A stretch of DNA of 63,510 nucleotides, the filler included, from Asterionella formosa (taxonomy: Eukaryota): NCBI GenBank assembly GCA_002256025.1. It is 29 parts of 29 records of this genome, joined end to end, with 100 filler letters (N's around TTAATTAATTAA, not from the genome) between each part and the next. Parts side by side here need not be neighbours in the genome. Positions count along the whole stretch, not along the records: positions 46,092 to 48,184 come from NKIB01000454.1; 28 more parts are not named here. One strand, written 5' to 3'. Shown in pieces: positions 4,302-59,233 of the stretch. Position numbers and translations under genes: made by a program. The notes beneath the pieces were generated by a model. The model ran no database searches, was not told the DNA's origin, and saw only the letters and a list, made by a program, of their open reading frames with translations. Every line of letters begins with the position of its first letter. Position 1 is the first letter of the stretch.

Positions 4302-4439
4302 NNNNNNNNNNNNNNNNNNNNNNNNNNNNNNNNNNNNNNNNNNNNTTAATTAATTAANNNNNNNNNNNNNNNNNNNNNNNNNNNNNNNNNNNNNNNNNNN
4401 NTCTCAAATAGAATAGACATATGTTAATATACTTAGCAT

Positions 4440-19785: not shown

Positions 19786-21881
19786 GATATTGAATATTGT
19801 CTGTCAAGATGGGATGATTAAGGAAACATGTAAGCAGAGGTTCATCATCTAATTCAATTGAAAAAGTAGAAGTGGAAGTTGATGTTGGAGATTTCGGTCC
19901 AATATCAATATCATCCTCCACCAAAGACTCAAGCCTCGGGAGGCGAGAGATGGAATCTGCAATAGCATTGTCAGTCCCTTTCACATAATGAAAAGTAGGA
20001 TGGTATTCTTCAATGTAAAGTCGCCATCGTAGAACACGTTGTGTATGTAATGTATTATAAATAAGATTTCGATGATCAGTGTGAACATGTAGAACTGCGC
20101 CCAATAACATAGAGCGAAATTCTTTGAAAGTTTCTACCACAGAAAGTAATTCTTTTTCAATAGTAGTATAATTCTTTTGAGCAGCAGATAATTTGCGAGA
20201 ATAATAAGCAACTGGGAGATCATTTTGCATAATGACCGACCCTAATTGATAATCAGAGGCATCAGTAAAGATATGAAAAGGGAGATTATGGTCAGGATAA
20301 CGCATGAGTGTATCTGCAACTAACAATGCTTTCATTTCTTCAAAAGCTTGTTGATGGATAGGTAACCAGACAAAGGGACTAGTTCCAATTAAATCCGTAA
20401 GTGGTCCAAGAACATGCGATCGTCTAGGAAACATGTCTCGATAGTAAGTAACAGCACCGAGAAATGATCGAACTTGTTTAAGATTGGTAGGTGAAGACAT
20501 ATTAATCAATGCTCGGACTTTTTTAGACCAAGGTTTCAGTCCATTAGGAGTTAACCAATAGCCTAACCAATCTGTCTCTTGGACGGCCCATTCACACTTA
20601 GATGGATTAATTGTAAAACCATTTATCTGTAAACGATGTAAAATAGTGTCCAATAAATGAAGGTGATCTGAAAAATTCATTGAAAAACAACCCACATCAT
20701 CAATATAAATTTCCACATCATCTAAATCACTAAGGATCTGTTCCATAGTTTCTTGTGCAATGTCAGATGATTGTTTCACCCCCATAGGCAGGCGTAAATA
20801 TTTATATAAACCAAATGGAGTTGAAATAACACACAAGTTTTGACTCTCCACATCCAATGCAAAAGTATAGTATTGCATGGAAACATCCAATTTGGTGAAA
20901 AATACATATCCAGCACGTTTAGTGAGAATAGTTTGTATTCGAGGCAAAGGATATATATTGCGATTGATGACTTTATTAAGTTCACGAAAATCTGATACCC
21001 ATCGGACACTTCCATCCTTTTTTGGAATAATAAAAGTGGGAGATGCCCATTTAGAAGCACCACATTTTTGTAGGACTCCAATATCACATAATCGTTGTAA
21101 TTCAGTTTTGAAAACTTCTAAATGAATATGAGCGACCGGATATGCTCGTTGATGACGAGGGACAGCATTTGATAATAATTCCAAATGTACCTGTTTGTGA
21201 GGATAGACTTTTAATTTGCCATCAAATAATGTTTGATATTTAACCAATATAGATCGTAAACATGATCGTTGTATTGTTGTCAAATGTATTTGTTTATCCA
21301 CCACTGTATCAATATTTATATAATTATATTCAGCAGCTTTAATTTCCAGCGCATATGAAGATTCCACAATCATAGGTGCATCGAAATATAATAATACATC
21401 TTGTAAACGTTCTCTATCATCAAAGAATGTGAGCGGATGCATAGGAACGATCATATCCATACAGGACATGGTGTTATTTACGAAATCAATGGTTAAACCA
21501 ACTTGACGGAGCATAACCCGTTCATGTATTAAGGATAATGATCCTCCACTATCGAATAATACTCGTAGTATTTTATGTATCGGTATATTATCCACCAATT
21601 TTGGCGCTAAAAGGGACATCGGAATCAAATCAATTGATGTTAATATATCCTTAGAAGTAAAACAAGAAACCGGAATTGGTCCCTGATATGTATGTGGAAC
21701 ATCATGTCCATCAATACAGTTATATATATCCCGCGTTACATTAACAGCGGTATTCATAGTGTATTCAACCTGTAAATAAACAATATTATTCAGGTGATGA
21801 CTAACGTGAGATATACTCAACGAGTCATTATAAATAGCATCGCTATTATCGCACATACCTCTGTAATGGCGATCAGCAATC
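19786..21881 (-). mobile_element. Ty3/Gypsy pol (protease with deletion, RT, RNase H)
   Basis: LFDSGGS, WASPTFIIPKKDGSVRWVSDFRELNK, RLPMG, YIDD, FTDASDYQLG, YTTIEKELLS, HTDHRNL, ADSISRL. Confidence 0.95.
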
Positions 21882-24176: not shown

Positions 24177-26271
24177 TAGCTGAATGGGTACGATATGTCT
24201 GCCAGAGTAAGACAAGTTTCTGACCAAAATCTCATGTCCACACCAAGTGCACACTTCGTCGACATGAGTATACAATGTTGGCAGTTTACGTGTGAGAGTG
24301 CTCGTCCTCACCATATCAGAAATCAATTTTGAGTCCTTATCGTTGCAGTCGTCTTCCGAATCGTTGTATGCGTCGTTTGAATAGATAAATACTTCTTTTG
24401 AATCTAGCGATTCTTCCGAGTCGTCGTATGTTTCTTAGGCGCAGCATGAAAAGCGTAATGTCACAGAGGAATAAAAAGGGGAAGCAAAATAGGAATTTGA
24501 CTGGGAACGGGGACCTGTTGTTATGAAAACTGTTTGACACTTTTATTTTTATGTACCTGTTGTAAGTTCAAAAAAGTATGTTCTTCCAACGAATCCCTCC
24601 TGCTGATTTTGAATTTGGTGTTGGGTCTGGTTTATTTTGCTCAGACATGTTGTTCTCCGTTCATAAAGGACCCAATTGTGAACATTGCTTTTATGAATAT
24701 ATACCGGTAATGATAAACATACATTGATTTTTATTATATCAGAGTATCATTTTTGATGGAGTCGGCTGGGCGATGCTGGTACGAGGACGAACTGATATGT
24801 ACTGGTACCAGTTTCTTTACTTCACGATTCGGCTCGATCCTCACAAGAATCAAATTCCGTGCTGGTACATATGGGTTCCCTGATGAGGAAGGCGGACCGA
24901 TCATACCAGCTTACTACCGGTAAGTATGTCCCGGTAGGTACCTGTGAAAGTTGCGGTCATTTTGCTTAATTAAATAGACAATTTCATTTAGGATAAAGGA
25001 AGATAAATCTTTTGTTCAGGAAAATTGCCGCAACATGCAGGTACCAGGTAACCCTGGTGTAATGCATACCCGGTATTCCGCTGGGCGAACACAATTGCGG
25101 GTACCTGGTACTGTTTATAATGCGGTAGGATTAATGGTACCTGGTACCTGGTACCAGACACCGGTACATAGCTTTGTACCCTTGTTCTAAAGCTACACAG
25201 GTATACCTGACTGTCTGGTACCCAGAAAGAACTCAAAATTTTAAGGGTTCATTCCCGTAACAGTAATTGCAGTCGTGACGTGACGGAATATCAGCTGAAA
25301 TGAGTACTTTGTACCAGTAGTACCAGGTAGTATGTATTGTTATGTCGACATAGGCATTCAGTCAATCCATGTCCGTACGAACACAGTGTACTTTTGATAC
25401 AAACGGAATTGTAAGACAGCTGCTGGAGTGTACCTGGTACCGAAATACGGGTTTGTAACTACCGCAAGTCCTATAGGTACCTGGTACCTGGTACCAGCAG
25501 GACCGGTACCGGTATCTGGTACCGTAGATGAAATTCATTTATTGGGCGGAACGAAATTCTATCGTCCTCGGACTCCTTCGACTTCAGTACATACATGCTC
25601 GATTGTTTGCTGTTCGCTCTTCGAAGGGCTTCTACCTTACATACCCACCGTAGGAAATCTACGGGGAGACTAATTTTCTACACTTCGATCTTCGTCGCCG
25701 CTGCATCATTGCTTGCTTGTCGTTTCTCAACGTTCAGAAGTTGGACAGGCTGCACGATACTCGTCATTTCGTTCATTTTAAATTTTAAGCATCCATTCAA
25801 TACCATTACCATGAACCCTGAATAGTGAGTCCAACCATGGCGTGCATGAACACTGGTGTTGTCCCGCTGAGGGAGAAAGAGAATCGGTGAAAGACAGGAA
25901 CCCATGGAAGCTGTGAGAACGAGAATTCGCAGGCAGTCTCGTTGCGAATTATTTAGCAGTCATTCGCAAGCAATCAACTTGCTCCAGGGTGGTTCCAGGC
26001 CATGGCGAAGTGGCCTGGACAAGTGGCCTGCGATTCTATTCGTTAGGAATTAGCCCTGGCAAAGCAAAGATAAGGACGCTCTTTCCCCCGATAGCCCTGC
26101 AATGACAAGGACGTGTGTATGTCTTGGAACGAGGGGTCGTAAGATGCAATCATGAGGCATGCAAAGATTTCTGGTTTGCACGTTTCTAACATTGTTTTTC
26201 TCCTTTTCTTGTTCCTTCTCCCCAAAACAGCGATTACCTCTTCAAGCTTCTGCTTATCGGAGACTCTGGTG
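24177..26271. repeat. Whole-contig near-duplicate of 41706-43798 (probable allelic haplotig)
   Basis: Identical first and last bases, collinear throughout with scattered SNPs and indels. Confidence 0.9.
24941..25041. mobile_element. 101-bp CCTG...CAGG MITE, TA-flanked
   Basis: TA|CCTGTGAAAGTTGCGGTCATTTTG...GAAAATTGCCGCAACATGCAGG|TA; same family as 12582. Confidence 0.75.
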
Positions 26272-30520: not shown

Positions 30521-30749
30521 ACGACCAGAAAAATTGCACAGATTGTGGATGCTTTGGAAAATGAAAGTGAAGATGGAACAGAAAGCAACAGCGAAAATGA
30601 GAATGACAGAAAACCTGATTATGACAATAATTTGAACAAGTCATTAGAANNNNNNNNNNNNNNNNNNNNNNNNNNNNNNNNNNNNNNNNNNNNTTAATTA
30701 ATTAANNNNNNNNNNNNNNNNNNNNNNNNNNNNNNNNNNNNNNNNNNNN

Positions 30750-32844
30750 TCGATTTCTGGGAATTGTGCTTCCAGTGTAGAGATCAGCTGGGCAAAGGGA
30801 ATGATTATTTGGGGTATGATTATAAAGGTGCACCGCGTAAGTAACTGCCATAGGCCAAAGTGTGCTGGCAATCCCTCCTTTCCAATGACTGGAAGCATGG
30901 AGAATCATTGAGCGTGCCATGTCAGATACTGTTCTAATAGCCCGTTCTGCTACACCATTTTGATAGTGTGCATTTGTTCCACAGTATTGAAGACGCTGAG
31001 TATGTTCTCGAATATGTTTAACAAGAGAGTTTGCTTTGAATGCTCCACTGTCAGTGAGATAGGATTGTATAATGACACCATTGTCCATTGCCTTTTGCTC
31101 ATAGTTTTGTTTTGCTCTGATGGTTTCAACAGCAGAGAATTCCAATTGGTGCTCCACTTGAATGTATCCGGTGCCATGATCCACAAATATGCAGCCCCCT
31201 TTGTAGGTGTCTGCTGATGGTTTTCCATAGGAGTCAAAGGTGCGTCCTAGAAGGCGAGATTCAAAGTGACCAACGGAAACTCTAACACCAGGTCCAAGAT
31301 GTTCAGCTGTCAGTGCACCAGTTCGTTCAGGATTTGCAGTGATTGTGGAAGAATTTGTTGAACAACGGTGTCCTTTAGAGTATTGACAGATTTCGCATTT
31401 TCGGTCCAATGCATTGCATTTGGATGCTGAGGCAAATCGATTGGCGGTGAATGGGAATGCACGCAGTATTCGTTGAACTGCTGGTAAGTTTAAGTGTCCG
31501 AAGCGAAAATGCCAATTTAAAAGAAGTTTTTGACCAGCACTATTGTTTTGATTTCCCTCGTTGGTTAGGGCAAAGTTCATCTGCGGTAACATTCCCGATA
31601 CAATCCTGGCTTGTCCAATTGGGAGGTGATATCTGGGGTCATACTCAACAATCAGACAAGGACACCCATCGAATTGAAGCCTGAATGATTCTTCATCACC
31701 CTTGTTGTACCATCCACTTACTCCTTTTTCTTTATTGAACAGACGTTGTGGACTAATCAGTCTCATTTTAGATTGAGGGACATAGTAGCATTAGCTGCGA
31801 ATCTGCACTTCTGTGCCATCTTTGTTGCTGAATGTCCATGTAACTGGTCCAACTCCCTCTAATTTTAATCCGTTGGCCATACACCCAAGTCGAAGTTCAT
31901 AGTCTGGAATGGTAAGTGGCCCATCAAAGTCTTGTATGTCATGTGTAACTCCCAATGATGCTCCTGTATCGAAGATTACTGCTGACGTTGTGTTTGCCAT
32001 TGTGAACAAAGAGTATGGGTCATGTGCTAAGATATCGATATCGGTAAGAACATCCATCACTTGGGTCGTTGAGTGGTTGCATGTTGGTTCCTCCTTAGTA
32101 TTTGTTAATACAGTTGCATTCGAGTCATGTATGCAGTCAACACAGTGGCGGGTAGCACAGAGGTCATGAAAGTGAAATGGATCATATGGTGTCTGAGGTG
32201 TTGACGCATTCACAGATGTGGATTCAAGAACACATGGGTTGAGATCATTGTGAATACTTTCCCATTTTATTTGGTTGAAGTTTCAAAGAGCTGTCCAATC
32301 CAGGTCAATCATCGTTTCAAGTTTTGTGATTCTGTCATACGTAGCAGCCGATTGAGTGTTGAAAAGATCCTTGACAGTGTGGAAGGTTGGAAGGTTCTTG
32401 TGACCATAAAATATCCCAGGCAAAAGTAGAATGGAATGAGTCAATATCATCCATGATGCTGGTGCAAAAATGAAAGGTATAGGAACATTCTTCTGTTTGC
32501 ATCGTTGCAGTGTGCGAGCAGGAGTATCAGATGGGGAAGAAAGGATAAAGTATGCTACTGTATCCCAGAATATCGCACTAAACCAAAATAGGATTTTCAT
32601 GATAAGGTATGTTGTGCTCTGGATCGAGTCACTTGGCAGTTTCAGGTCCTCCCCAGCAATTTCATTGTTTTTGCACTCCAGATTTGCATGTGTCTCACAA
32701 GCATTGTTATTTTTATTGGTCTTCTCCCTCTCAATGACAGAAGTGTGCACGTTTGTTTCGCTCTTTCTGAAGGTACTTGGAGTAGGAGTGTATCCGCAAA
32801 CCTACACATCGACATCAATTGGATAGATAACAGGAGCACACCAT
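30750..32844 (-). mobile_element. Defective CoDi-like Copia: spacer, protease, pre-integrase, integrase
   Basis: VIFDTGASLGVT, LISPQRL, LLLNWHFRFGH, CEICQYSK, VSVGHFES (expected Asp is Gly), LTDSGAF, QNGVAERAIR; in-frame stops. Confidence 0.92.
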
Positions 32845-33796: not shown

Positions 33797-33967
33797 TGTT
33801 GGTACCATATACCGGTTACTCCGTATATCCTACCAAGATTCCTGTAAGTGCTTAATTCCCGTGAGTACTGGTCCCTCTACAGATAGTTAAATACTACTTT
33901 AGAATCTCAGTTCCTTGTTAATGTAGCTGCCGCTGGCATCCGTTGCAAGCGTTTCTCCCTCTCAACA
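33797..33967 (+). repeat. Short 3' LTR (~171 bp)
   Basis: PPT GAGGGGGG, then TGTTGG...TCAACA. Confidence 0.75.
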
Positions 33968-33972
33968 CACAC

Positions 33973-35039
33973 AACTCTATCCTCCATATTGGATAGGTAA
34001 CCAATGACTCTTGCCACTGCATGCCATTGTTCTTCACCTGGGCAACTTAAATGAGCCGATAGTTCCCGAACCGCATTCGCACAGTCCGGCGAATCCTTCT
34101 TTGTAGACCATAGTAACTTGCCCACAATTTTTCGATATTCTCCTTCCATAATGACTTCACCGTCATTCTTGTTCAATGTCTTTCCTGGTACACCCGGCGT
34201 TGCGTACGACTTAATTATCATACCGGTCAACTTCTCGTATTCGCGTAGAAGTTGCATACGAAATTTCTGCATTTGCACCTCCCAGTATTCACCATACTTG
34301 TCCTCTTTCCAAGCATATTCCACTCCTAGGTGTTTCTGTAGAATACCCTGCTCGGTAATATTGAAATCTTCCTTGATAACATTTTTCATATACTCCACTG
34401 CACTTGGAGTCCCACATACAATACCGTCATCCACGTAATTAACAAGTAGACCATCAATTTGTCCATCCTTGTTCCGGTGCATAAATAACATAGGGTCGAT
34501 CTTGCTCTTCGTCATACCTGGTTTATTGGTGACACATTTCGCAAACGTCCTGGACCAGCATCGTGGAGCTTGTACTATCCCGTACATAGCCTTCACAAGC
34601 TTGCAAACATGTGTATCGGAATCGACTCCGATCAAACCTTGAGGGGGCTCAATATAAATGTCCTCATCGACGTCAGCATTTAGAAATGCTGCTTCCACAT
34701 CAATAGCCTCCGCTCGCCAACCGTTGTACATCGTCACTGCGAGTACCGTTTTGATTGTCGCATCGCTTGCAACTGGAGCAAATGTCTCAGTAAAATCGAC
34801 ACCTGGGATTTGCTCATATCCCTTCACGACCAATCTTGCCTTGTAAATGGTCTTCCCGGTTAACACATCTTCTTTAATTCGAAACACCCATCTCGTTTTT
34901 AGTGTTCGCTTCTTAACAGTATCACGTTTGATAACTTTCCACACTCCTCTCGACTGGAAGTTTTCATATTCTTTGTTGATCGCCTTGATCCACTCTTTCT
35001 TGTCTGGTCTTGCCATTGCTTCATCGTAGCTTGTTGGTA
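33973..35039 (-). mobile_element. Copia RT, same family as 3419-4301, interrupted at 33973
   Basis: YKARLVVKGYEQIPGVDF, DVEAAFLN, KAMYG, YVDDG; 33973-34215 matches 4058-4301. Confidence 0.95.
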
Positions 35040-36934: not shown

Positions 36935-37234
36935 ATATGGTGTTCTGTTGCTCGCTTATTACTCCGACTATTGGTTTTTTGTTTTACGATCATACAATCC
37001 TAGAGCTATGATGATTTACTGTCCCACGGTAGTAGCAACAGTCCTGAATATATGGTGTTCTATTGGTTTTTAGTTTTACGATCATACGATCCTAAAATTA
37101 TGATGATTTACTGTCCCGCTGCAATAGCAGCAGTCATAGACATTTCGTGTTCTATTGGTTTTTAGTTTTACGATCATACGATCCTAAAACTATGATGATT
37201 TACTGTCCCACTGCAGTAGCAACAGTCCTGAACA
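36935..37234 (-). repeat. Family A tandem array, copy 3
   Basis: Reverse complement of the GGGACAGTAAATCATCATAGTTTTAGGATCGTATGATCGTAAAAC units. Confidence 0.9.
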
Positions 37235-37957
37235 NNNNNNNNNNNNNNNNNNNNNNNNNNNNNNNNNNNNNNNNNNNNTTAATTAATTAANNNNNNNNNN
37301 NNNNNNNNNNNNNNNNNNNNNNNNNNNNNNNNNNGCCGATAACAACATGAAGTCGCGTTTTTCTTGCGAGGTGAAGAACTCTCTCATTTTTCACAAGACG
37401 GAAATAATTGTCATATTAATACATCTTAGAAAAATGTGCGCTATCCTGTAGAACTAAAGAAGTTTACTTAGGTCCATTATAAGGGAAATCTCTTCATTGT
37501 CCTGGGCCCCCCTTAAGTAAAATCAGTCAAATTCAGTCACGGCAGTGTACATTGGGGGGTCCAGGACAATGAAGTATACGGTAGTTTCTTTGATAGAAGT
37601 AGGCGAGGAGACTTCCTTGTTGTAGATTCAGGAGTTAAGGGAGCTCCTTTTCTTTTCAAATACTTCGTCAATTCTTCGGATGAATTTTTGCTATACTCCA
37701 TCATGTCATGAAGATCAATAGTCTTTAACCAATTCTTAATGAGTGTAATACTGATCACCTTTCTTTTGTTTCTGTATCACTAAAAATATTGATCCTCAAC
37801 TCGCTAGGCTCCATATATTTCATTATAGAACTATATCTACCCTGTATCTTGCAAAAAATGGCGTTCAAAATATGCAATCACGATCATATAACAAGAAGCA
37901 AGGTCGGACCAAAAAAATTCTCGATGATCATTTTTTGCATGGCTATATACATATTTT

Positions 37958-38295
37958 TTAAAGTATTCTTACCTTTTTAGATAGATCTATATCATTTGAC
38001 AAAGGAGGCTATAGATAGAGGCGTTTGTTTCTCTTTCGTTTCTAAATTCTTATTGTGAGTTACTAAACTGGTTTAGGTTCTTCAGTTTAAATAAACAAAC
38101 GAATTATTCTCCAAATGCTGTTGTCATTTCTAGAATCATACATTCATGGATAGACCCATGTCCATCTCACACTTACTGATCATAGGTTTATTACCATTGA
38201 TCATTCAATTCAAATTATCGGTCTACCGAATGACATGTGGTTGATGAGAGCTTGTTGGTACATCAAAGTCGACTCATTTGACTATGAGTCATACT
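37958..38295 (-). repeat. Diverged LTR of the 49002 family
   Basis: Reverse-complement similarity to ~49050-49418. Confidence 0.8.
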
Positions 38296-38648
38296 AACTT
38301 CCTGGATAAGCTCACTTGACCACATATTCAGCTAAGTCATGATACATTATTTTCCTCATAGTGATGAAGTTCTGTATATAGGCAGTCTATGATGAATAAA
38401 AACGTGCTAATCTATATACCGGTGGGTATAGTCCCATATTGCAATACTGGTATTAGAAGTACTAGATTTGCGAAATGATCACGAAGAACGAGTGTTACAT
38501 GTGAATGCCTTGTTGTGAAAAGGGCACTATAATTGACATGTCGTTTTGTGCAATGTAGCTAACAGAAATAATAATGGCCTTGTAGACCTCTGGCAGAGAT
38601 TAGCATACTGCTACATTTTTACTGTAATTAGAGTGGATCATGCCACAG

Positions 38649-38956
38649 TGTTGCAAAATCTATTTTCCCCGACATACCATAGGCCCTGAACCTATGATTG
38701 TTTCAAGAATCGGTTATATTCGATTGAGTTGAAGGTAAGAAGAAAGTCGGATCAAACTTCGTTCTTACTAACTGGATTGTTTCGAGATAATGATCTTGAA
38801 ACAAATCTTATCTACTTCTGTGTGGTTGGTGTACCTCTACGCACCACCTCAGACCAAGTAAGTGGTACTGTCGAATCTTCTCTCCTTGTAACTAGTGTGC
38901 CAGTATCGGTACCCGGAGTTCCTGTCCCACAGTTATCAGGTCGCCATTTTTCAACA
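38649..38956 (-). repeat. 3' LTR related to 46284-46635
   Basis: On minus: GAGGAGCG|TGTTGAAAAA...CATTATCTCGAAACAATCCAGTTAGTAA...TAGGTTCAGGGCCTA...TTGCAACA. Confidence 0.85.
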
Positions 38957-39428
38957 CGCTCCTCGGCCGATGGCAGTGGGTTCATGGTCAGGGTGTCGAT
39001 GTGTTTGTACCCTAGGATCACGTCACGGAATTTTCGAAAAAGGGCTCCTTGCAATGGTTTTGTAAAAAAATCCGCTAGCATCCGCAAAGTTGGGCAGTGT
39101 CGTATGGTAATTTTGTTGTCCTTGATGCGGTCCTTAATCCAAAAATAACGTATGTCAATATGCCTAGATTTAGGTCCTGCCGACATTCTTCCATTCTTCT
39201 CAAGCTTGATGGCACTCTCGTTATCCTGTTCAAGGAAATTTTCAACAATCATATGTCCTTGTGCCATGAGGAACATCTTCACCCACATGACGTTAGGCAA
39301 GTAATCACTAGCTCCCACAAGTTCTGCCTCCGTCGAGCTTTTTGTATTGAGCTTTTGCTTACTTGACTTACATATGATGCCTCCAGTCCCAAAGGACATC
39401 ACTCCTCCTGTGTGGCTCTTCATGTCGG
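38812..39428 (-). mobile_element. CoDi-like Copia RNase H; ORF reads into the 3' LTR
   Basis: MKSHTGG, SSKQKLNTKSSTEAELVG, QDNESAIKLEKNG, SRHIDIRYFW, MLADFFTKPLQG. Confidence 0.95.
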
Positions 39429-40318: not shown

Positions 40319-41605
40319 ATGGCAATGTATTCAAGGGTTCCTGTGATTCCTTTGATCAAAGACTACAATGTATTGACTATCAAAACTAAAACGTTCAGAG
40401 TTGCTTTAACCGGTGGAAGGTTTGAATCGTTTGATCAAGATATGATCGATGGAAGCTCAGTGGAAGCATTGTTAATTGGAGTGAGTCAATTTCGTGACAT
40501 GGCTAACACATGTGACTTTAGCCCTGCAGATACCTTTTCCTATTTTAAAAGGTGTTTGACAGACATTGCCTTATCGGATTGGTTGAATGTGGAAGTACAC
40601 CCAGAAGATCAATCTTACGATGGCTTTATGGTTAGACAATCGTTTACCAAATGAGAGTTTTCAACATCAACGACAATGGATGCTACGTTATTTATCTAAA
40701 CCCTTTTCCATCTTGGTAATGGATTACGGAGCTCGTATTAAAACTCTAAACAGGCTACTTCAACTAATGCCTCATCCAGAAGATCAAGTTGGATTGTCAA
40801 AAGAAGATATACGGATTATCATTATCCGTTCTATGCCCGATGAGTGGCAACAAGAGTTTGAATTAAATCATGCAAAGACTTCAGACCAATCGATTCGCTC
40901 GGTTCTCGCTTACTTCGAGAGTCAACAATCGTTTAAGGACCGAAACAAGCATCTTCCCAAGAACAGTTTTCAAACAATCGCACAGAACCGTCTTCGCATT
41001 GCTGAAGGCAATCGTGTGATGCGTCAAGAAAACGAGCGTGTCAGTCGTCAATTCTACAAGGATAATTTTACTCCAACCCTTGCTATTGTCAATGCAGCCG
41101 GACGCGCATGGGATCGTCAGGCAACTGTTCGTCATCAAGCTCTACAAGCCAGTCGTACGTACCATGATTATCGTGGTCCTTGCCCGGTACATCCTGAAGG
41201 TGTACATACTTGGGGCAATTGTTTCCAGAATCCTCGTACTCAAGGTGGTCGAGCAGGTCGTATGACTGGTCGTCATATTAATGGACGTGGCCGTTCCAGT
41301 TTTGGTAGACGAGGACATTTTGGTGGTCGTGGAGGCGGTGCACACAGCAATCCTACGGAAAGCTATCATACTGACACTGCTAACCCTGTGCCTGTTCCAC
41401 ATGCTCGTATGTTAAATGCATGGGGTCATAATACTCGTCCATCCGGTTGGGGTACCGTGCCACGTGCCGATCCTACCGAGAATACATCTGCCCAGGAAAT
41501 TTCAGTGGTCACGAACCCTCCTGCTGGCCAGATAGTGACTTTTGTCCCTACTATACAACAGCAGATTGCTGATCGCCATTACAGAGGTATGTGCGATAAT
41601 AGCGA
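40319..41605 (+). mobile_element. Gypsy gag with a frameshift near 40625; continues into pol at 21881-19786
   Basis: FKRCL, Q..WM..L.KP, RIKTLNRLL..MP, SMPDEWQ, CPVH....HTWGNC knuckle variant; last 42 nt overlap the start of the pol contig. Confidence 0.85.
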
Positions 41606-41705: not shown

Positions 41706-43798
41706 TAGCTGAATGGGTACGATATGTCTGCCAGAGTAAGACAAGTTTCTGACCAAAATCTCATGTCCACACCAAGTGCACACTTCGTCGACATGAGTAT
41801 ACAATGTTGGCAGTTTACGTGTGAGAGTGCTCTTCCTCACCATATCAGAAATCAATTGAGTCCTCATCGTCGCAGTCGTCTTCCGAATCGTTGTATGCGT
41901 CGTTTGAATAGATAAAAACTTCTTTTGAATCTAGCGATTCTTCCGAGTCGTCGTATGTTTCTTAGGCGCAGCATGAAAAGCGTAATGTTAGAGAAATATA
42001 AAGGGGAAGCAAAATAGGAATTTGACTGGGGACGGGGACCTGTTGTTATGAAAACTGTTTGACACTTTTATTTTTATGTACCTGTAGTAAGTTCAAAAAA
42101 GCATGTTCTTCCAACGAATCCCTCCTGCTGATTTTGAATTTGGTGTTGGGTCTGGTTTATTTTGCTCAGACATGTTCTCCGTTCTTAAAGGACCCAATTG
42201 TGAACATTGCTTTTATGAATATAATAATCATAAATATACATTGAATTTTATTTTATCAGAGTATCATTTTTGATAGAGTCGGCTGGGCGATGCTGGTACG
42301 AGGACGAACTGATATGTATTGGAACCATTTACCTACTTTACTTTACGATTCGGCTCGATCCTCACAAGAATCAAATTCCTTGCTGATACATATGGGTTCC
42401 CTGAGGAAGGCGGACCGATCATACCAGCTTACTACCGGTAAGTATGTACCGGTACCTGTGAAAGTTGCGGTCATTTTGCTTAATTAAATAGACAATTTCA
42501 TTTAGGATAAAGTAAGATAAATCTTTTGTTGAGGAAAATTACCGCAACATGCAGGTACCAGGAAACCCTGGAATAATGCATACCCGGTATTCCGATGGGC
42601 GAAAACAATTGCGGGTACCTACCTGGTGCTGTATATAATACGGTAGGATTACTGGTGGTACCTGGTACCAGACACCGGTACATAGCTTTGTACCCTTGTT
42701 CTAAAGCTACACAGGTATACCTGTTAGTCTGGTACCCAGAAAGAACTCAAAATTTAAAGGGTTCATTCCCGTAACAGTAATTGCAGTCGTGACGTGACGG
42801 AATATCAGCTGAAATGAGTACTTTGTACCAGTACCAGGTAGTATGTATTGTTATGTCCACACAGGCATTCAGTCAATCCATGTCCGTACGAACACACTGT
42901 ACATTTGATACAAACGCAATTGTAAGACAGCTGCCGGAGTGTACCTGGTACCGAAATACGGGTTTGTACCTACCGCTAGTCCTATATGCACCGGTGTATA
43001 TATATTCATAGCACCTGGTACCAGTACCAGCAGGACCGCTATCTGGTACCGTAGATGAAATTCATTTATTGGGCGGAACGAAATTCTATCGTCCCCGGAC
43101 TCCTTCGACTTCAGTACATACATGCTTGATTGTTTGCTGTTCGCTCTTCGAAGGGCTTCTACCTTACATACCCACTGTAGGAAATCTACGGGGAGACTAA
43201 TTTTCTACACTTCGATCTTCGTCGCCGCTGCATCATTGCTTGCTTGTCGTTACTCAACGTTCAGAAGTTGGACAGGCTGCACGATACTCGTCATTTCGTT
43301 CATTTTAAATTTTAAGCATCCATTCAATACCATTACCATGAACCCTGAATAGTGAGTCCAACCATGGCGTACATGAACACTGGTGTTGTCCCGTTGAGGG
43401 AGAAAGAGAATCGGTGAAAGAGAGGAACCCATGGAAGCTGTGAGAACGAGAATTCGCAGGCAGTCTCTTTGCGAATTATTTAGCAGTCATTCGCAAGCAA
43501 TCAAGTTGCTCCAGGGTAGTTCCAGGCCATGGCGAAGTGGCCTGGACAAGTGGCCTGCGATTCTATTCGTTAGGAATTAGCCCTGGCAGAGCAAAGATAA
43601 GGACGCTTTTTCCCCCGATAGTCCTGCAATGACAAGGACGTGTGTATGTCTTGGAACGAGGGGTCGTAAGGTGCAATCATGAGGCATGCAAAGATTTCTG
43701 GTTTGCACGTTTCTAACATTGTTTTTCTCCTTTTCTTGTTCCTTCTCCCCAAAACAGCGATTACCTCTTCAAGCTTCTGCTTATCGGAGACTCTGGTG
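41706..43798. repeat. Near-duplicate of 24177-26271, containing the MITE copy at 42455-42555
   Basis: Same end points and collinear sequence. Confidence 0.9.
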
Positions 43799-43942: not shown

Positions 43943-44489
43943 CCTCTAGAGGCAGGAGGTCTAGCGTTAAATAGTATTTAACAAGCATAATTCGTACATT
44001 ACAATTTAATTAAATTCAGAATTTGCAATTGTATGATGGTTCAATATAAACATGATAAAAGTAAGGAATAATGATTTTGAAACCAACTAGCTTTATCCTG
44101 TTGACAAATACCATAGAGAGCTACTACAGATACATATTGTCTACCATGAGAAAAGGTAGCTTACTATCGTTCTTACTGGTGTGATACTTCCATTGTAAGT
44201 GTGGGTACTGTGGTACATATACCGGTATACCTATGATCTATGATAGGTGCAGGTTGTTGAGGGGAAACTTGTTATTAGTAGCGAAGGTGAGCTACAATAT
44301 TATGACTACTGGTACTATGTTCTATTGCTGTCGTTCGATTATTGCATTATTTAGTATCTGGTACCTGGTATCGTGGTACATCATTCCCAGTGATTAACAC
44401 AGGTCTCACATATACTATTGAGAGCGAGTCGTGCGAGGAAGGCTGGCACGATTCCGTTGAGGCTTGGCTTCTGCTCTTGACCCTTGCTA

Positions 44490-44722
44490 CTTAAGTTAAA
44501 AAAGAATAAGCATCTAGTGCTTGCTTAAATTAAAAGTAAATAAGCGTTTGGTGCTAAAGTTAGCTATAAGTAAATAAGCGTTTGGTGCTTAAGTTAAAAG
44601 TAAATAAGCGTTTGGTGCTTAAGTTATAAGTAAATAAGCATTTGGTGCTTCCTTAAGTTAAAATTTTATAAGCGTTTTGTGCTTAAGTTGAAAGTTAATT
44701 CTGGTAAGCATTTGGTACTTAA
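44490..44722. repeat. ~30-34-bp tandem repeat, ~7 units (AAGTAAATAAGCGTTTGGTGCTTAAGTTAW)
   Basis: Read directly; a TCAT-type microsatellite also lies at ~45070-45168. Confidence 0.9.
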
Positions 44723-45159: not shown

Positions 45160-46283
45160 CATCATCATTATGTCAGCAACAATTACAACAAATCGCTGAT
45201 AATTTGCCGACAGTGGTCATGACATCATTCCCTCAATTGCTATTGTATACTAATCAAATACATAGAATCGAATAGTCGTTAGCGTATTGCAAACGATTTT
45301 TATTGTAGCAACTACATTTCTTTGGAGGAATGGCTTAGTGGTTAGCACACCCACTTCGACAACCCTGAACAATATTTTATTTTTGCCTTAGGGTTGAAAT
45401 GCAGGAACCTTGAGTTATACGTTTCCTTGGTGGAAAGGCCGGCATGCATGCATTTTACCCCGCTGGCCCATCCCAAAGGAAGTCGACTTATAACGCTTTT
45501 AGTTTTGCGGCGAACCTTTTTAAACGTATGTCAACAATTCTCTTCAATGTGTGAAGGCACATTTTCCGTATGTCCCTGGTACCAGCTACTGGTATCTGGG
45601 GCGGAGTAACTGGTAACTACCGTTACAGGTACCAGGGAGTACTCCAAGGCAATGCTGGTATACTATTGGCCGAACATTATATACCGTTGCCGGTACATAT
45701 GTGCATACGACGACAAATGATTCACAGAACAGGATCAAACAAACATGCGGTTTGTACAAGCGTCGTCTGTTCTTGATAGTCCAATTTTTGGGGAGACAAA
45801 ACTCCCATTTTTCTGCCCTGATTAAGAAGCCTTTTTCTTTTACAGCTATTCCGTAGAACCTGGATGGTGTCTCGTACCCCTTTACTTAGAGGGGAGTACA
45901 AAACATTGGACCTTTTTTGATCGTCAGACATTATGAAAAAGCAAACTAAAACGTTTCTTCATTTTCTAACATTTTCTAAAACATAAATAGCNNNNNNNNN
46001 NNNNNNNNNNNNNNNNNNNNNNNNNNNNNNNNNNNTTAATTAATTAANNNNNNNNNNNNNNNNNNNNNNNNNNNNNNNNNNNNNNNNNNNNTTTGTGGAT
46101 GCGGATATCGGCGCCAACAACTGCTTGTGCTGTTTGTTCTTTGGCAGTCGATATCAAGGGAAAATGTGATAGAGGAAAAAATAATAATTGAATCGAAATT
46201 AGGTACTCTTTACTTAATTATGTGGTGAGACCAGCATAATATTGCCGTGAAGTGGCGTAATTTCGCCATTATACCGTTATGAG

Positions 46284-46635
46284 TGTTGAAAAAATTCGAG
46301 CTGACTGCCACAGGACAGGCGTGAAGGGTATAGTAGACACGAGAGAGTACAGTACTACAGTTAAAACCGTACAGCCGCTACCAAGAGTTACCTGGGCTGA
46401 CGTGGTAAAAGGCACCACGCAAGGAAAAGCAATCAGAGGTCAAGAAAAAATGTTAAAATGCAGTGTGAGTAATAAGAGTGTTTCGAGACCATTATCTCGA
46501 AACAATCCAGTTAGTAAAGTGAAAGTTTAAGTTTGACAACTTCTTCGTTGCTATCAATTTCATCAACTGTATTCGATTAACACAGTACTAGGTTCAAGGC
46601 CTACGATACGGTCGAATACGGTAGTTGTTACAACA
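46284..46635 (+). repeat. 5' LTR of CoDi-like Copia
   Basis: TGTTGAAAAA...TTACAACA; 3' boundary fixed by alignment with the 3' LTR at 38956-38649. Confidence 0.85.
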
Positions 46636-46649
46636 TTGTTTCGAGATAA
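46636..46649 (+). promoter_or_regulatory. Non-tRNA primer-binding site complementary to LTR 46492-46505
   Basis: TTGTTTCGAGATAA abuts the LTR end and is the exact reverse complement of TTATCTCGAAACAA. Confidence 0.75.
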
Positions 46650-46788
46650 AATAAAACAAAAGGAACAGCCATTCACATGGAAGGCTGGAGTTTCAACATT
46701 TTAATCTAATCAAGTTTTTTGAACACTTTATAGATTCGAGTAGCGCAGCTGAAGGCCGCAGCCACCAATCAAGGAACCAACAAACCCC

Positions 46789-48184
46789 ATGAGCGCCACC
46801 CCAGACGCAACGACAAGCGGCAGCTTAGCGAGTGGACGCGGCAGCACCGGTGGGAGAGGGCGAAGGGACAACCGTCCGCGCGGGAGCCGTGGCGGCCGGG
46901 CAAGGACACAAGCGACAAGCAACAACCGTGGCATTTTTAAGGGTAGCACAGAGGGCATGAACGGAAACGTATTTGAATGCTATGAAGAACAAAGCGACAG
47001 ACGCCAGTACGCCAAAACGTTAGAAGTTCTAGACGGATATGTGAGGAAAACACTGAAGTACTCTGAAGACCTTGCCCCTTTGTTTGCCGACACCATGGCG
47101 GTTCCCATGGTAGACATGCCAGATGACCTAGATGACGATGCAGGACTGACCATGAAAATGATTTTCGCAGAAGAAGTAAAAACGTATGTCAAGCGCAATC
47201 ATACCCTGAAGAGCAACCTAGCAACAGTGTATGCGGTGATTTGGGGCCAGTGTAGTGATGACATGAAGGCAAAGATCAAAACGCACGATGACTACAAGGA
47301 CAAGACTGTCAACAACGATTGTTTTTGGCTTCTAAAACAGATCAAGTCAATTACTCTACAGTTCGATCAGAGCAGGAATGGTTTCATTGCACTTTTGGAC
47401 GCCCAGACCAGCTTCCTCAATTGTCGTCAGTTACAAGGACAGTCTGCAGAAGACTACGTCGAGTGTTTGCGAGGATGGGCTGAGACCATCGAGTACCATG
47501 GTGGCACCGTGGCAGCAAATTACAAACTGGTACCCTTCCAGGATCAGGACGGGAATGGGCGTAGCACTGAAGAGCGAAAGGAGATCGCACGCGAACGCAC
47601 CCTTGCAATCGCTTTGATTCGAAGTGCTGACCCCACCAGGTATGGCACCCTCATTACTGACCTGTCGAACCAGTATGCAATGGGAATTGATCAGTACCCC
47701 ACCGATTTATTGTCAGCCCAAAGCCTTCTCGTCAACTACAGAACTCCAACGAACACCAGCGTCAGGACAGACACACCACGCTCCCAGCCGACTGGAAGCC
47801 CTGAGGCCAGTGCAATGACGTTTGCGCAACGTGGCGAAATCGCAGGAAACAATGGAGTGTTACATGATGGCATCATCTGTTACAACTGCCAGAGCCTAGG
47901 ACACTACGCGGGAGACTGCCCTGACAGGCAGGGATCGACGACCTCAGGCACTACATTGACGCAGTATGCATACATGCTTGCACAGACCGGCGACCCTGGG
48001 ATTGATCCCAAGTGGATCCTTCTCGACTCGCAGTCGACAATCTCCGTGTTCAAGAATGCCGACATGCTCAGCAACATCCGGCGTAGCCCTTACGTACTCA
48101 GGGCGCTCACAAATGGGGGCTACCAGGACTCCAACATGGTAGGAGATTTTCCCAATTTGGGTAAGGTTTGGTACAACCGTGAAT
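46789..48184 (+). mobile_element. CoDi-like Copia gag-protease, uninterrupted, 3' partial
   Basis: RGG-rich N-terminus, FKG..EGMNGNVF, YAVIWGQCS, CYNCQSLGHYAGDC, WILLDSQSTISVF, TNGG. Confidence 0.95.
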
Positions 48185-49001
48185 NNNNNNNNNNNNNNNN
48201 NNNNNNNNNNNNNNNNNNNNNNNNNNNNTTAATTAATTAANNNNNNNNNNNNNNNNNNNNNNNNNNNNNNNNNNNNNNNNNNNNGAAAAGCTGAACCCAA
48301 TCTTGACCTACATCGTTATGTAGCGTAAATGGTCTGGTTTCTGCAACCATGCGCATCGCTGTAGTAGCCTGACACCAGTAGCAGTATTTCCGCCACAGTC
48401 ATTCCTCTCCGTTGCCCACCAAACAAGCAACCCTGATCATTCCATTCTGAGCAAGCGTGATCGCCACGCTGCTCCAGAACTATTGACTCTCTCTAGCTGA
48501 GTATTCTTCATGTAGCTTCTGATACGAACTCGTGGTAGAATTGTAGCAAAGCGCGTTAGTACAAGAAATGCAGTGCTTGGCGGCAATATTGACATCATTG
48601 TCAACGACTATACAAATCAGCAAATACGATCAACAACGGCACAATACCACATCTTCAATGAGTAGTCATTGATAAATTCATTGGTTCTCATGTATATATG
48701 TACAATCGAAACAAAACGACAGTGCGTAACGACAAACAACGATGGAAGCGATCAAAACAAACCACGGAAGCAATCAAATCGGAAAGTCGATAAATACGAT
48801 CTACAATCCACATTCAGTATTTCACTGTTGTACTCACCGATCCGCTTCAACTGGCATAACAAGCAGCAGACGATGGGATTAAGGAAAGACGAACGTTGCC
48901 TATTGCAAGCCCGAATAGAGCAAAGGCAGGCAAGATAGAGTGAGAACTATATTTGTGAGGACGAAATCGGGCATACGGTACGTAAAATCAATGAATATGT
49001 G

Positions 49002-49422
49002 TGTTAAAGTGAGCTCATCTACGTAGTTAGGACTCGGAGTCAAACGAGTCAAACGATTCGAATGAGTCCACTTTGATGTACCAAGCTCTCATCAACCACA
49101 CATTATACTTTGCTACTCCGACTATAATGAGCCGGACAACATAAGCTATTTCGGAAGACCGATAGTTTGAAATGAATGATCATGGTTAAATACCTATGAT
49201 CAGTAAGTGTGAGATAGACATGGGTCTATCTATGATTGTATGTTCCTAGAAATGCAAACAGCATTTGGAGAATAGTTCGTTTGTTTTGTTCAAACAGAAC
49301 AACCTAAACTAGATTAGTAAACTCACAATAAGAATATAGAAACGGAAAGAGAAACGAACGTCTCTATCTATAGTCTTCTTTGTCTAACGATATAGATCTA
49401 TACAAAAAGTAATACTTTAACA
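49002..49422 (+). repeat. 5' LTR of a Copia element
   Basis: TGTTAAAGT...ACTTTAACA terminal inverted repeat; end confirmed by the copy at 11124. Confidence 0.9.
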
Positions 49423-49454
49423 CGTTTATAAACGGACTTAAGTGTTTAAACAGC

Positions 49455-50376
49455 ATGTCTACAGAAATGTCTGAAGAGAGCATGAGGCTCATCAAGTTTG
49501 ATGGCAACGAAACGACCTGGTACCAGTGGAGCGTTAAAACGCTCGCTCTGGCGAAGGCAAGAGGATTCCGAACGATGTAATCCAAGAACCACAACCCGTG
49601 TTCTGACGAAGAGTACGAAGTGGAAACAGACAAAGGAGTCAGGGCTATCTACGAGGCCAACGACAAGGCGTACCAGTTGCTCATCATGAGCTGCACCGGA
49701 ATCGCCTTCGGACTCGTAAACCAAGCCAAAACGAAAACGTTGATCGATGGCGATGCATACATGGCGTGGAAGAACCTCGAAGCGAGGTATGCCCCCCATT
49801 CTGTGTCGGACCTGATCCAGCTGGCAAGCGATTTCAACAAATGCAAGCTGAACGATAGCTCCTCTGATCCAGACGAATGGTTCATTGAGCTCGATCTAAT
49901 ACAAAGCAAGATGATGGCGATCGACCCGTCATTCGAGAAGAAAGAAATGGAAGTGATTGCGAACGTAATCGACAAGCTTCCAGTGGAGTACAGCGAGGTT
50001 GTTACAGTCGTCGAGGGCATGACAACAATCAGCCTCAACGAATTGAAAGGAAAGATCCGAGCATTCTACAAACGAAAGCTAAAGGGCACGAAGAGCACAA
50101 AGGAGATCGCCCTATTCACGCAGAAATACAGAGGTATCTGCAAGAACTGCGGAAAACAAGGGCACAAGGCCGACGTGTGCCGATCAAAAACGAACACAAG
50201 CGGAACGAATGCAAACGGTACGAACGAAAAAAATGAGATAAAGTGCTATAATTGCAATAAATATGTCGGGCATATTGCAAGAGACTGCCCGGAACCAAAA
50301 CGCGCACCACGCGGCGAGAAGAAAAAAGAAACCGGAATGTACGTGGGAATGTGCGAGGAGATTACTGGTATGGAGG
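49455..50376 (+). mobile_element. Copia gag with a premature TAA at 49578
   Basis: IKFDGNETTWYQW, DAYMAWKNLEARY, DPDEWF, KLPVEY, two CCHC knuckles. Confidence 0.92.
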
Positions 50377-53228: not shown

Positions 53229-54305
53229 TCAAAAATCCGCCTGCCTAGAACTGATTGGACGTCGTAGAGCTTCTGCAAGCTTTGCCTCGCGTTGATCTGT
53301 CAATGTGACTTTTTTGCCTTCCTTCTTTTTGAAGGCCATTGCACGTTGTTTTTGAAACCAATGAAGCAAAGAATTCCTTGTAGATTTCTGCTTTGGCCAA
53401 GCCCCATTATTGGCTTCAACGAAATCCTTAAGATCCTTGCAATTCTTGTCCCAGATCGCTTGGTGAACGTTCCAAACAAAATCTATACGTTCCAAAAGTT
53501 CGATACGGTCTTTTGTCATCGGAGAACTTCGCCCTCTCTTCAATAGCGAGTAATTTTGTCGCTGTCGGTTCACCCAAATGCTAAGTTCTGTGTACGTTGG
53601 ATCTTTGAAAGGCACAACAGTGTGCCCAAAAATCCTGATATACTCCTCAAGTTCTCTATATTTCTTTGTCCACATTTCATCAATTTGTTCTCCCCAAGTG
53701 AAGCCTATTTCGTCCAGTTTTTGTATCCTTTCTTGTGTCATTCCAGTGTGTTTCATCGACCTTTGATTAGCAATCCAATAGTAAAGCTGAGGATTATCTG
53801 CCTTCTTGACGTTGAAATGCCCGTTCTCTTCTAAAAATTGCTTCAGATTTTCGTAATTAGTCTCCCATTCGAATTGTATGGCATTCCACACCATTCCCAG
53901 CGAGTTCAGGGCTTGGATCCGGTCGTCAGTCATGGGCGTTACCTTACCACGCAACCTCTGCTGATAATTCCACCTTTGTGTAACAACCCATTGATATAGA
54001 TCACCTGCTTCAGTGTCAGAGTGTTCCACTTTGGTACGCCCATTGTGCTTCTCCACAAATGCACGAAAGGCTTGAAACTTGACCTCCCATTTTTTATGGG
54101 AACGCGTACAATGGCATTCTTCGTTCTGTAGTGTCGTTGGTATATCCTTGATATTCGCTGAGTTCGAAAAGGACCGCTGATAGTGTTGCGACAGTAGTTT
54201 GATGTTCATGTAGCGGTAGTTACGGGCTTTAGTACGAGCAGTACCTGTAGTTGCTTTACACCAAGCAACTCGTATCACATTTCGGGATGATACCGATAGA
54301 AGCAT
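53229..54305 (-). CDS. Helicase-associated (HA, PF03457-like) repeat protein, 4 repeats, putative mitochondrial presequence
   Basis: W...F..F....G...V...L..WV..QR...MT..RI..L..LG..W repeated four times; basic, acid-free N-terminus. Confidence 0.85.
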   Translation of the reverse strand: MLLSVSSRNVIRVAWCKATTGTARTKARNYRYMNIKLLSQHYQRSFSNSANIKDIPTTLQNEECHCTRSHKKWEVKFQAFRAFVEKHNGRTKVEHSDTEAGDLYQWVVTQRWNYQQRLRGKVTPMTDDRIQALNSLGMVWNAIQFEWETNYENLKQFLEENGHFNVKKADNPQLYYWIANQRSMKHTGMTQERIQKLDEIGFTWGEQIDEMWTKKYRELEEYIRIFGHTVVPFKDPTYTELSIWVNRQRQNYSLLKRGRSSPMTKDRIELLERIDFVWNVHQAIWDKNCKDLKDFVEANNGAWPKQKSTRNSLLHWFQKQRAMAFKKKEGKKVTLTDQREAKLAEALRRPISSRQADF

Positions 54306-55719
54306 TGTTCCGTTGAACAGATATTATATGACAATGAATTTGGAAAGTAACAGCAACATGTCATTGATTATGAATGAAAGACTCATAAATTCCTCTGCCT
54401 GATGATCTGCATTGAACAGTGCATCAAACTACTGAAGGAAAGACACGACCGACGGTTGGTGGCCGGGCGCCACTCGTTTGGTCAACCTGCTCGCGCCTCC
54501 CAAGCCTCGAACACAAGATTACGAGTAGGCAGACTCCTCCCGAGTACCGGTAGGGTCTTAACTAGGCAATTCCCGCTCCAGCTATCGTCTTGCCATTCGG
54601 GTACTTCTAAGTAATTTTTAGGCTCTAAGTAATCTCTTAAGTAATTGATTTTTAGGGGCAATATGGGGCATATCAATTTTTTCGACAGAATGAAAATTGC
54701 CGATTTTAGGATGACAGCCAGAATAACGGTAAAATACATAAAAAGGGTACAACAAGCGTNNNNNNNNNNNNNNNNNNNNNNNNNNNNNNNNNNNNNNNNN
54801 NNNTTAATTAATTAANNNNNNNNNNNNNNNNNNNNNNNNNNNNNNNNNNNNNNNNNNNNTGAAGAAGCGCAGCGGGGTGACAAGAGTAGATCAATGCAGC
54901 AGACGAAAGGCAACGCCACAAAGAAGAAGAAAAAGAGAAGCAATGTCATAGCACGTGGATTCAAATGAATGAGCTATATTTTCAGATTTTTGAGTACACA
55001 GAACAATAGGATAGGCTTTGATGACTCGTAGCCCTGGTTCAGTGCAGCAAGCAGTTACAGCATCGTTCACACTCTTTTCTCGGGTCGAAGCCGTACTATA
55101 TAATGTGCAGGCCATGTCCCGTTTTCGTGACAAGGAGCTGTCCTTATAATTCTTTATTATTGGGAATGCCATTATGGGTTGACAGGGAGAAGCTACATGG
55201 ACTTAAAAGTAGGTCAATCAGCATTCGTGTTCCAGTATGCATTTTCGTTGTTGTCCTTGAAAAGAGTGCTGATCAAATAACCCAAGAACTCAATGCAATA
55301 ATGTATCATCTATTGCAAGTTGTAATGAATGTTCAATCTTTTCACATCCATATATTCCTCGTCTTGAGGGAACAGTGAGGATTCTGAAGTAGTAAGGAAA
55401 TCAGTTGCCAAATATACAATGCATCTTGAACATACGAAAATGTTTTGTTTCTTTCATCTATACCTTCATACTATAGGTCCCCCCAATAAAATGTGTGACT
55501 TTTAATTTCAATGATGAGTTTAACTTTGACTGACAAACATTGAAATTGCACATCTGTTCAAATGTATTTAACAGTTGGCCCAACAGGCACAATCTGAAAT
55601 CACACAAAATGGGCCAATACTTTTTTGATGATTTGATATATAACATCGTCATTGCAAACTGGGCGCGCTCTGATAAGAAAAGAATATTGCATATCATGTG
55701 CATTATAACATTAATTCTT

Positions 55720-58582: not shown

Positions 58583-59233
58583 CCTAATTTATTCCGGTTA
58601 AACAAAAATTTATTTCACTTATCGAATAATTATGTGATCACACCAATAATTATGTGTGTTCGTGACAATATATGTTGACCAACTAGCCATCGCAACAGTT
58701 TAAAAGCGAAATTATGCTGCTCTGCCGCAATATTATGCTGCTTTCACCATATAATGAACGAAAGAGTCGCCAATTCCGATTCACTTATTATTTTTTCCGC
58801 TCCGACATATTTCTTTGATCTGAACTGGCAAAGAATAACACATGCAAGAGGACGATTCACACTGTAGAATTCAGCACACGTAGTAGTAGTTGATGTTGTA
58901 GACACATAATTAAGTCATTGTTGATTGTAGAGATTACAATAGCCTGCCAGATTGGAAATAAAGCACCGTTGGTACTTGTTGAGCATCGTTGAGCATTGCA
59001 TGTCTCCGTAGTGAATCGAAATTGAGATGTGCCACAATGGCCTTCTCCGTCTCGGAGCAGCTACAAATAGTCTACAGCGATAACTCTAGCAAGTACAATA
59101 TAGAAAAAGAACCAGAGGATGAGTAGCTGACAANNNNNNNNNNNNNNNNNNNNNNNNNNNNNNNNNNNNNNNNNNNNTTAATTAATTAANNNNNNNNNNN
59201 NNNNNNNNNNNNNNNNNNNNNNNNNNNNNNNNN

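Follow-up and report, generated by a model that had tools for sequence, protein, structure and literature searches.

Introduction

To our knowledge, self-priming of reverse transcription has been proven experimentally only for Tf1/sushi retrotransposons, and it has been predicted for a few other lineages. The 5' end of the Tf1 RNA folds back, RNase H cuts the resulting duplex after base 11, and the transcript's first 11 bases act as the primer (PMC7175516). The duplex that this primer forms with the primer binding site (PBS) is part of a larger 'pretzel' structure of the leader (bioRxiv 10.1101/2022.12.06.519325). Self-priming has also been predicted for the plant Copia lineage TAR (Houba, Osr-1), where 89% of 203 elements were predicted to be self-primed, the measure being complementarity over 10 bp or more that begins 0-5 bp past the LTR (PMC6317226). 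The initial annotation of the DNA analysed here had cited Tf1 as priming with the first bases of its transcript and TAR as a proposed case of self-priming, and it was correct on both. Two further kinds of Copia elements are relevant. The fungal GalEa elements carry a 'Conserved Hairpin Site' in place of a PBS; this site, a local palindrome of 9 bp, takes in the last A of the 5' LTR, and the authors found no complement to it in the LTR (PMC5445492). Drosophila copia and the plant elements Osser, Bryco and Bianca are half-tRNA-primed and have a PBS that does not match the 3' CCA end of a tRNA (PMC6317226).

Here we describe a Ty1/copia element of the diatom Asterionella formosa that most likely primes its minus strand with its own RNA, in the manner of Tf1. 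Like Tf1 and Tf2, which belong to the Tf1/sushi group of Ty3/gypsy chromoviruses, it has a PBS directly after the 5' LTR that is complementary to the start of R. Unlike Tf1, it has a reverse transcriptase of the Copia type (RVT_2), a duplex of 14-15 bp as opposed to 11, and an arm in U3 that is predicted to form a hairpin over the putative transcription start. Like the members of plant TAR, it belongs to Copia and has its predicted self-primer within the 5' LTR; unlike TAR, its host is a diatom and not a land plant, and neither covariation across families nor a U3 arm is mentioned for TAR in the accessible text of PMC6317226. As in GalEa, a tRNA-type PBS is apparently lacking and the conserved pairing element includes the final A of the LTR, but in the diatom elements the pairing partner is located within the LTR, 130-190 nt upstream, and the site is not a local palindrome. 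With the half-tRNA-primed Copia elements it shares a PBS that does not appear to match the tRNA 3' CCA end; unlike theirs, which is fixed by a host tRNA, the diatom PBS varies and tracks the element's own LTR.

In agreement with the initial annotation, no description of self-priming in a diatom Copia element was found in a full-text literature search with little cover of subscription journals. The main text of the founding CoDi paper (PMC2806351) does not contain the terms 'primer binding', 'tRNA', 'priming', 'PPT' or 'hairpin'. According to the same paper, diatom transposons are activated by stress and shape diatom genomes (PMC2806351), which makes their mechanism of replication a matter of practical interest.

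Results and discussion

Sequences compared

The window is the whole stretch of DNA that was analysed, 63,510 nucleotides of the A. formosa assembly GCA_002256025.1. It is made up of about 29 contigs of about 2.1 kb each, separated by spacers of the form N44-TTAATTAATTAA-N44 (for example 2102-2201 and 4302-4401). The pieces are ordered by length, and those that adjoin in the window need not be neighbours in the genome. The predicted self-priming site lies within the piece 46092-48184 and the 3' LTR with which it was compared lies within the piece 37335-39428; since the two LTRs are on different contigs, they belong to two different elements. In order to compare the element with its relatives, we retrieved 79 metagenome loci by means of a gag alignment (A2), with gag identities ranging from 100% to about 29%. 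The window element and these loci together form a scan set of 80 sequences.

Anatomy of the element and the end of the LTR

The features of the element are collected in Table 1. The copy in the window is truncated at the contig end, and only its 5' LTR and gag are present. The LTR termini are of the TG...CA type.

Table 1. Features of the self-priming candidate and of the related element, in window coordinates.
Feature	Position	Strand	Remark
Flank	46092-46283		5' of the LTR
5' LTR, 352 nt, TGTTG...CAACA	46284-46635	+	Aligned with both LTRs of L001, which bear out both of its ends
U3 arm TGTTTCGAGA, PBS-like	46479-46488	+	Pairs with 46495-46504, forming the U3/R hairpin
Conserved CA, putative initiator/transcription start	46490-46491	+	Directly 5' of the primer
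Putative self-primer: 14 nt from the start of R (TTATCTCGAAACAA) and T46506	46492-46506	+
R/U5 stem-loop inside the primer:PBS helix	46566-46622	+	In MFE and centroid folds
Predicted primer binding site TTGTTTCGAGATAA	46636-46649	+	Adjoins the LTR end
A-rich leader	After 46649, before gag
gag ORF with CCHC zinc knuckle	46789-48184	+	Pfam zf-CCHC; runs off the contig end
3' LTR of related element, other contig	38649-38956	-	R-start block 38790-38777, U3 arm 38804-38795
C-terminal pol ORF of related element	38812-39428	-	Extends 144 nt into its own 3' LTR

The position of the LTR end, which the initial annotation had placed at 46635, is borne out by the paired LTRs of four full-length relatives. 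In L001, whose gag is 100% identical to that of the window element, the 5' and 3' LTRs are 95% alike, both run to ...AACAACA and then diverge, and the 5' LTR is directly followed by TTGTTTCGAGATAA. The junction of LTR and PBS is the same in L015, L031 and L035. Because the paired LTRs of these relatives end at the equivalent of 46635, an alternative end at 46698 is rejected. The earlier observation of a block shared by the two LTRs in the window was likewise confirmed: 28 nt (CATTATCTCGAAACAATCCAGTTAGTAA) are identical between LTRs that are otherwise 74% alike. A purine-rich tract (GAGGAGCG) precedes the 3' LTR both in L001 and in the other LTR of the window.

Two observations concern the state of the assembled copies. 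No matching 5-bp target-site duplication is visible in L001 (94-98 and 5805-5807, with only 3 nt of 3' flank) or in L035; a chimeric assembly, recombination between copies, or decay are possible explanations. Several contigs (L002, L025, L030, L071 and L075; L034, L041, L044, L047 and L053) show the order pol-LTR-PBS-gag or have exact terminal overlaps of 119-127 nt. These contigs are circular permutations, as expected from LTR- or R-mediated assembly, or from tandem or one-LTR-circle forms.

The window gag is 99-100% identical to the full-length polyproteins P0001 and L001, in which the Copia-type reverse transcriptase domain RVT_2 was identified at residues 1072-1306 (E 8.5e-19), and the longer gag-containing proteins in general are polyproteins of 1600-1800 amino acids with RVT_2. 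The domain is RVT_2 and not RVT_1, so that the reverse transcriptase is not of the gypsy type. No integrase was found by Pfam (E up to 1, three sub-regions of L001) or by a PDB profile search with the A2 alignment. The interval of about 750 amino acids between the zinc knuckle and the reverse transcriptase contains, in the A2 consensus, a D..D..E-like motif ending in ERSIRT, which may be integrase-like. The assignment to Copia is based on RVT_2 and on the presence of these 750 or so residues between knuckle and reverse transcriptase. By its predicted mechanism the element is Tf1-like, and it is outside the Tf1/sushi group. The only organism name among 93 protein matches to gag is that of another diatom, Fragilaria crotonensis.

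In the intact relatives a single gag-pol ORF (603-5699 in L001; also L015, L016, L021 and L049) spans the polypurine tract (PPT) and the whole U3 of the 3' LTR, and its stop codon lies -15 to +38 nt from the R start in all five. In the 3' copy, U3 and with it the hairpin arm described below thus seem to be coding sequence. The pol ORF of the related element in the window, which runs into its U3, has the same layout.

The PBS is complementary to the start of R and covaries with it

The initial annotation had noted that the 14 nt following the LTR are the perfect reverse complement of a segment within it. The present analysis bears this out: TTGTTTCGAGATAA has its exact reverse complement at 46492-46505 and again at 38777-38790 in the other LTR, and the helix reaches 15 bp if the pair T46506:A46635 is counted. 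The partner in the LTR ends 130 nt before the LTR end, and the offset of the PBS from the LTR is zero. By the measure applied to plant elements, namely at least 10 nt of self-complementarity starting 0-5 bp after the LTR, the element has 14-15 nt at offset 0.

The same arrangement was found in the relatives. Of 41 upstream regions examined, 26 have, directly behind ...ACA, 14 nt that can pair with a 14-mer located 131-193 nt upstream (start to start), and this 14-mer is flanked by a conserved (T/C)CA before and T(C/A)C after it. The pairing is perfect in 21 of the 26 regions, and the other five have two G:U pairs or one mismatch. Primer and PBS differ between families, for example TTATCTCGAAACAA/TTGTTTCGAGATAA in the window element, TTAAATCGTTTGAA/TTCAAACGATTTAA in L015, TTCTTTTTGATTAA/TTAATCAAAAAGAA in L049 and CTTTAAAAAACTAA/TTAGTTTTTTAAAG in L033. 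Additionally, we scanned whole contigs, irrespective of position, for exact 14-nt inverted pairs 80-300 nt apart. An exact 14/14 pair with CA before both halves, in corresponding positions, is present in 28 of the 80 sequences, with 18 distinct primer 14-mers among them, and in none of the 80 in each of five shuffles of the complete set.

In order to measure covariation, 25 sequences (24 distinct) were aligned with MAFFT over the 15-pair helix (alignment A4, 360 cells). In the 24 distinct sequences, 99.7% of the 360 cells are paired, as opposed to at most 51% when the register is slid. Compensatory double changes occur at 11 of the 15 pairs, with 24 further pair types, and the covariation score of 0.703 compares with 0.173 after shuffling and was reached in none of 500 shuffles. 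The covariation between R start and PBS that the initial annotation had proposed as a check is therefore present, both in A4 and in the scan, and the pairing pattern holds down to a gag identity of about 29%. Among the four pairs that do not vary is T46506:A46635, and covariation therefore does not settle where the duplex ends on its 3' side. The A of the CA is invariant in the 25 sequences and the C is at least 90% conserved; no conserved sequence was found in A4 after the PBS 14-mer.

Several loci do not show the full pattern. In six of them the ACA/TT junction is present and the contig starts too near to it to include the partner, and most of the remaining loci are without one or both regions. 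L053 pairs along no more than 12 nt, and the copies L020 and L048 have decayed. The LTR-end/PBS-like junction of L061 is without a partner in the 646 nt upstream of it, and the 436 nt upstream in L032 show no LTR. The G:U pairs of the old copies L031 and L035, whose LTRs are 85% and 90% identical, correspond to C-to-T changes at CpG; selection for RNA pairing was considered as their cause and dropped, since C-to-T at CpG always gives G:U. A scan of the 1.3 kb upstream of gag in another Copia gag contig of the window (48285-50376) gave no inverted pair of 12 nt, and the exact 21-nt R-start pattern had no matches among the genome contigs searched.

Probable priming from the element's own RNA

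The variability of the PBS bears directly on the nature of the primer. A PBS that adjoins the LTR end, varies at 11 of 15 positions and tracks its own LTR argues against a host tRNA as the primer and is what a mechanism like that of Tf1 calls for. As the initial annotation had observed for the element in the window, the PBS lacks the TGG with which a tRNA-type PBS starts, and this is true of all 18 PBS versions. The initial annotation's proposal of tRNA-independent self-priming is strongly supported in silico, since 18 PBS 14-mers each match a site in their own LTR with no gap between LTR and PBS. A scan of the window and of 18 of the 79 loci gave no tRNA genes with which the PBS could be compared; it is the argument from the PBS sequences that speaks against complementarity to a host tRNA or tRNA fragment.

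We propose the following sequence of events. Transcription would start at or beside the conserved CA (46490-46491), and the first 14-15 bases of R would fold back onto the PBS (from 46635 or 46636 to 46649), so that the R-U5 leader would form a closed stem around the U5 stem-loop; the covariation demonstrates this pairing. By analogy with Tf1, RNase H of the element would then cut the RNA duplex at its 3' end, after base 14 or 15, and reverse transcriptase would extend the short RNA into U5. The plus strand would later copy the primer, remaking the PBS to match R in each cycle. Such resetting would explain why pairing is perfect in every intact copy.

Structure predictions of the leader independently recover the fold-back helix. 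RNAfold of the window leader from A46491 places the 15-bp helix in both the MFE and the centroid structures (z -4.76), and RNAalifold, applied to three clades separately, returned the helix between R start and PBS as the closing stem each time. Homologues of the stem-loop at 46566-46622 were found by RNAalifold in all three clades with compensatory changes. Besides the closing helix and this stem-loop there is only an extension of 3-4 bp, in clades A and B, and a 'pretzel' of three duplexes as in Tf1 was not clearly found in the predicted folds of the three clades. We also observed that the top of the conserved R/U5 stem-loop is GGTTnAAG-like. In Rfam, the sole match of the region 46092-46900 was a sub-threshold snoRNA in the 5' flank (E 0.36).

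Retroviruses have leader helices that enclose U5. The helix could by this precedent be a leader structure only, with a role in packaging, dimerisation or control of translation, while a host tRNA, half-tRNA or tRNA fragment acts as the primer. We consider this very improbable. The helix starts precisely where the LTR stops, which is where a primer has to have its 3' end, and no other conserved block is found near the LTR end. A host primer would hold the PBS constant, but its 14 nt vary among the relatives as described above, and the consistent lack of an initial TGG also speaks against such a primer.

The transcription start

Self-priming with the first bases of the RNA would place the transcription start next to the conserved CA. 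A different start would change the role of the U3 arm listed in Table 1. If the element is self-primed and transcription begins upstream of this arm, the hairpin (46479-46504) would be present at the 5' end of the RNA as well and compete with the PBS for the primer. Its role would then go beyond masking the 3' copy to that of a conformational switch between translation or packaging and priming. At -14.1 kcal/mol, the arm:R duplex is nearly as stable as the R:PBS duplex (-18.1 kcal/mol), and there is no consistent TATA-like motif to fix the start. However, in 24 distinct sequences the complementarity begins right after the invariant CA, which fits a primer that starts where the RNA starts, as in Tf1. 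The hairpin loop contains this CA in clades A and B1, and in clade C the CA falls inside the 3' arm of a longer U3 hairpin; overlap with the CA is thus the only fixed relation between hairpin and primer. Additionally, pairing between U3 and primer is slight in 11 of 23 LTRs (see below). Both an upstream start and a switch of this kind therefore seem unlikely.

Sequence from part of the element is present in 18 of the 21 listed sequencing runs, and 12 of these are recorded as RNA. These data are assembled contigs, from which 5' ends cannot be read and for which no joints or poly(A) ends were noted. In two runs, the RNA contigs that span the end of pol, the PPT, U3 and R break off at 46586 and 46594. 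These points lie within the stem-loop 46566-46622 and some 45 nt short of the LTR end, and the same two runs have low cover of U5, PBS and leader. This gives a weak hint that the border of R and U5 lies near 46586-46594. A contig with the order PPT-LTR-PBS-gag (X1) was considered as evidence for the start site and set aside, since assembly through R gives the same order.

The U3/R hairpin

The arm at 46479-46488 folds with 46495-46504 at -14.0 kcal/mol (z -5.97), and none of 200 shuffles was as good. That both LTRs carry such a PBS-like arm, as the initial annotation had stated, holds; the other LTR has TGTTTCAAGA, with one mismatch. Because the stems are in different registers and therefore do not fit a single alignment, we assessed the hairpin by folding each sequence and by comparing matched with mismatched duplexes. 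The arm covaries with the R start in the clade of the window element (L008, L009, L012, L013, L035) and in L015, L067 and L021, all with the conserved CA in the loop and with arm pairs such as CGAGA/TCTCG in one case and CAAGAGA/TCTCTTG in another. The family's own U3 is the best partner, equalled by no more than one U3 from another family, for 8 of 23 R starts. The duplex of U3 and primer reaches -11 kcal/mol or lower in 12 of the 23 LTRs and is weak or absent in the other 11 (L041, L019, L077 and L059 among them), which indicates that the hairpin is not a general requirement. Its cover of the primer varies from 0 to 13 nt and its register differs between families. Judged on these comparisons of sequences, the hairpin is real and selected in some clades and is not universal to the mechanism.

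The initial annotation had proposed that the hairpin masks the 3' copy of the primer. As the arm lies upstream of the presumed start, it would be present in the RNA only at the 3' U3-R. The existence of the hairpin and the tracking of the R start by its arm, in the clade of the window element and in several others, stand, but as a mask of general effect the hairpin falls short, with a strong duplex in barely more than half of the LTRs. In the clade of the window element, where the arm is identical to part of the PBS, the hairpin may keep the second primer copy off the PBS, a plausible role that we hold to be less likely than not. The wider reading, that a whole clade of diatom Copia elements gave up tRNA priming and that, in part of it, the U3 copy of the PBS is a selected decoy over the 3' copy of the self-primer, leaving just the 5' copy free to reach the PBS, is similarly tentative. 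A pairing of the U3 arm that would counter fold-back of plus-strand strong-stop DNA was also considered and dropped, since this DNA is duplexed with its template over R.

We give about even chances to the view that the hairpin is no decoy at all, and is instead a palindrome centred on the start that acts at the level of DNA, an element with another role in the 3' RNA, or a side product of a PBS-like U3. The variable register and cover and the 11 weak LTRs fit such explanations, as does the frequent mismatching of the arms (L009, L012, L013 and the other LTR of the window) where the PBS pairs perfectly. That the PBS pairs are perfect and the U3 arms imperfect also fits recopying of the PBS from the primer. 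Another role in the 3' RNA is conceivable because pol ends at the U3/R border in all five intact elements. On the other hand, the arm tracks the R start in clade A, L015, L067 and L021, and the preference of 8 of 23 R starts for their own U3 also speaks against this view. The fact that arm and R start change together points to pairing of nucleic acids, and not to a fixed binding site for a protein.

Implications

Self-priming as predicted here would add a widespread clade of diatom Copia elements to the self-primed retrotransposons, with comparative evidence from 18 different primer/PBS pairs. Annotation tools that seek a tRNA-type PBS will misjudge these elements. Host defences aimed at a tRNA-type PBS, such as tRNA fragments, would not see them. 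If the PBS is recopied from the primer, it should follow changes in the R start of the 3' LTR within two rounds of retrotransposition. The decoy, if true, would be a cis-regulatory layer that is not described for Tf1 or TAR. If the clade and plant TAR turn out to be sister groups, self-priming would date far back in Copia and would not have been invented repeatedly.

Other features of the window

Many pieces of the window are fragments of transposons, including a gypsy reverse transcriptase/RNase H at 19733-21880, a Copia reverse transcriptase at 33910-35037, and Copia gag sequences at 49581-50375 and 30705-31790. The 5' flank of the LTR (46134-46278) is 77% complementary over 145 nt to 58694-58838 in another piece, which suggests that the element was inserted into a different repeat. 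The flank is also represented in one RNA run. The pieces 24177-26271 and 41706-43798 have identical 20-mers at both ends and look duplicate or allelic. Outside the transposons, a protein with four repeats of the helicase-associated (HA) domain is encoded at 53232-54323 (-), and a weak chitinase-like ORF is found at 40587-41603 (+). Tandem repeats are present at 36968-37243 (three copies of a 92-nt unit) and at 44488-44699 (an array of 30/34-nt units).
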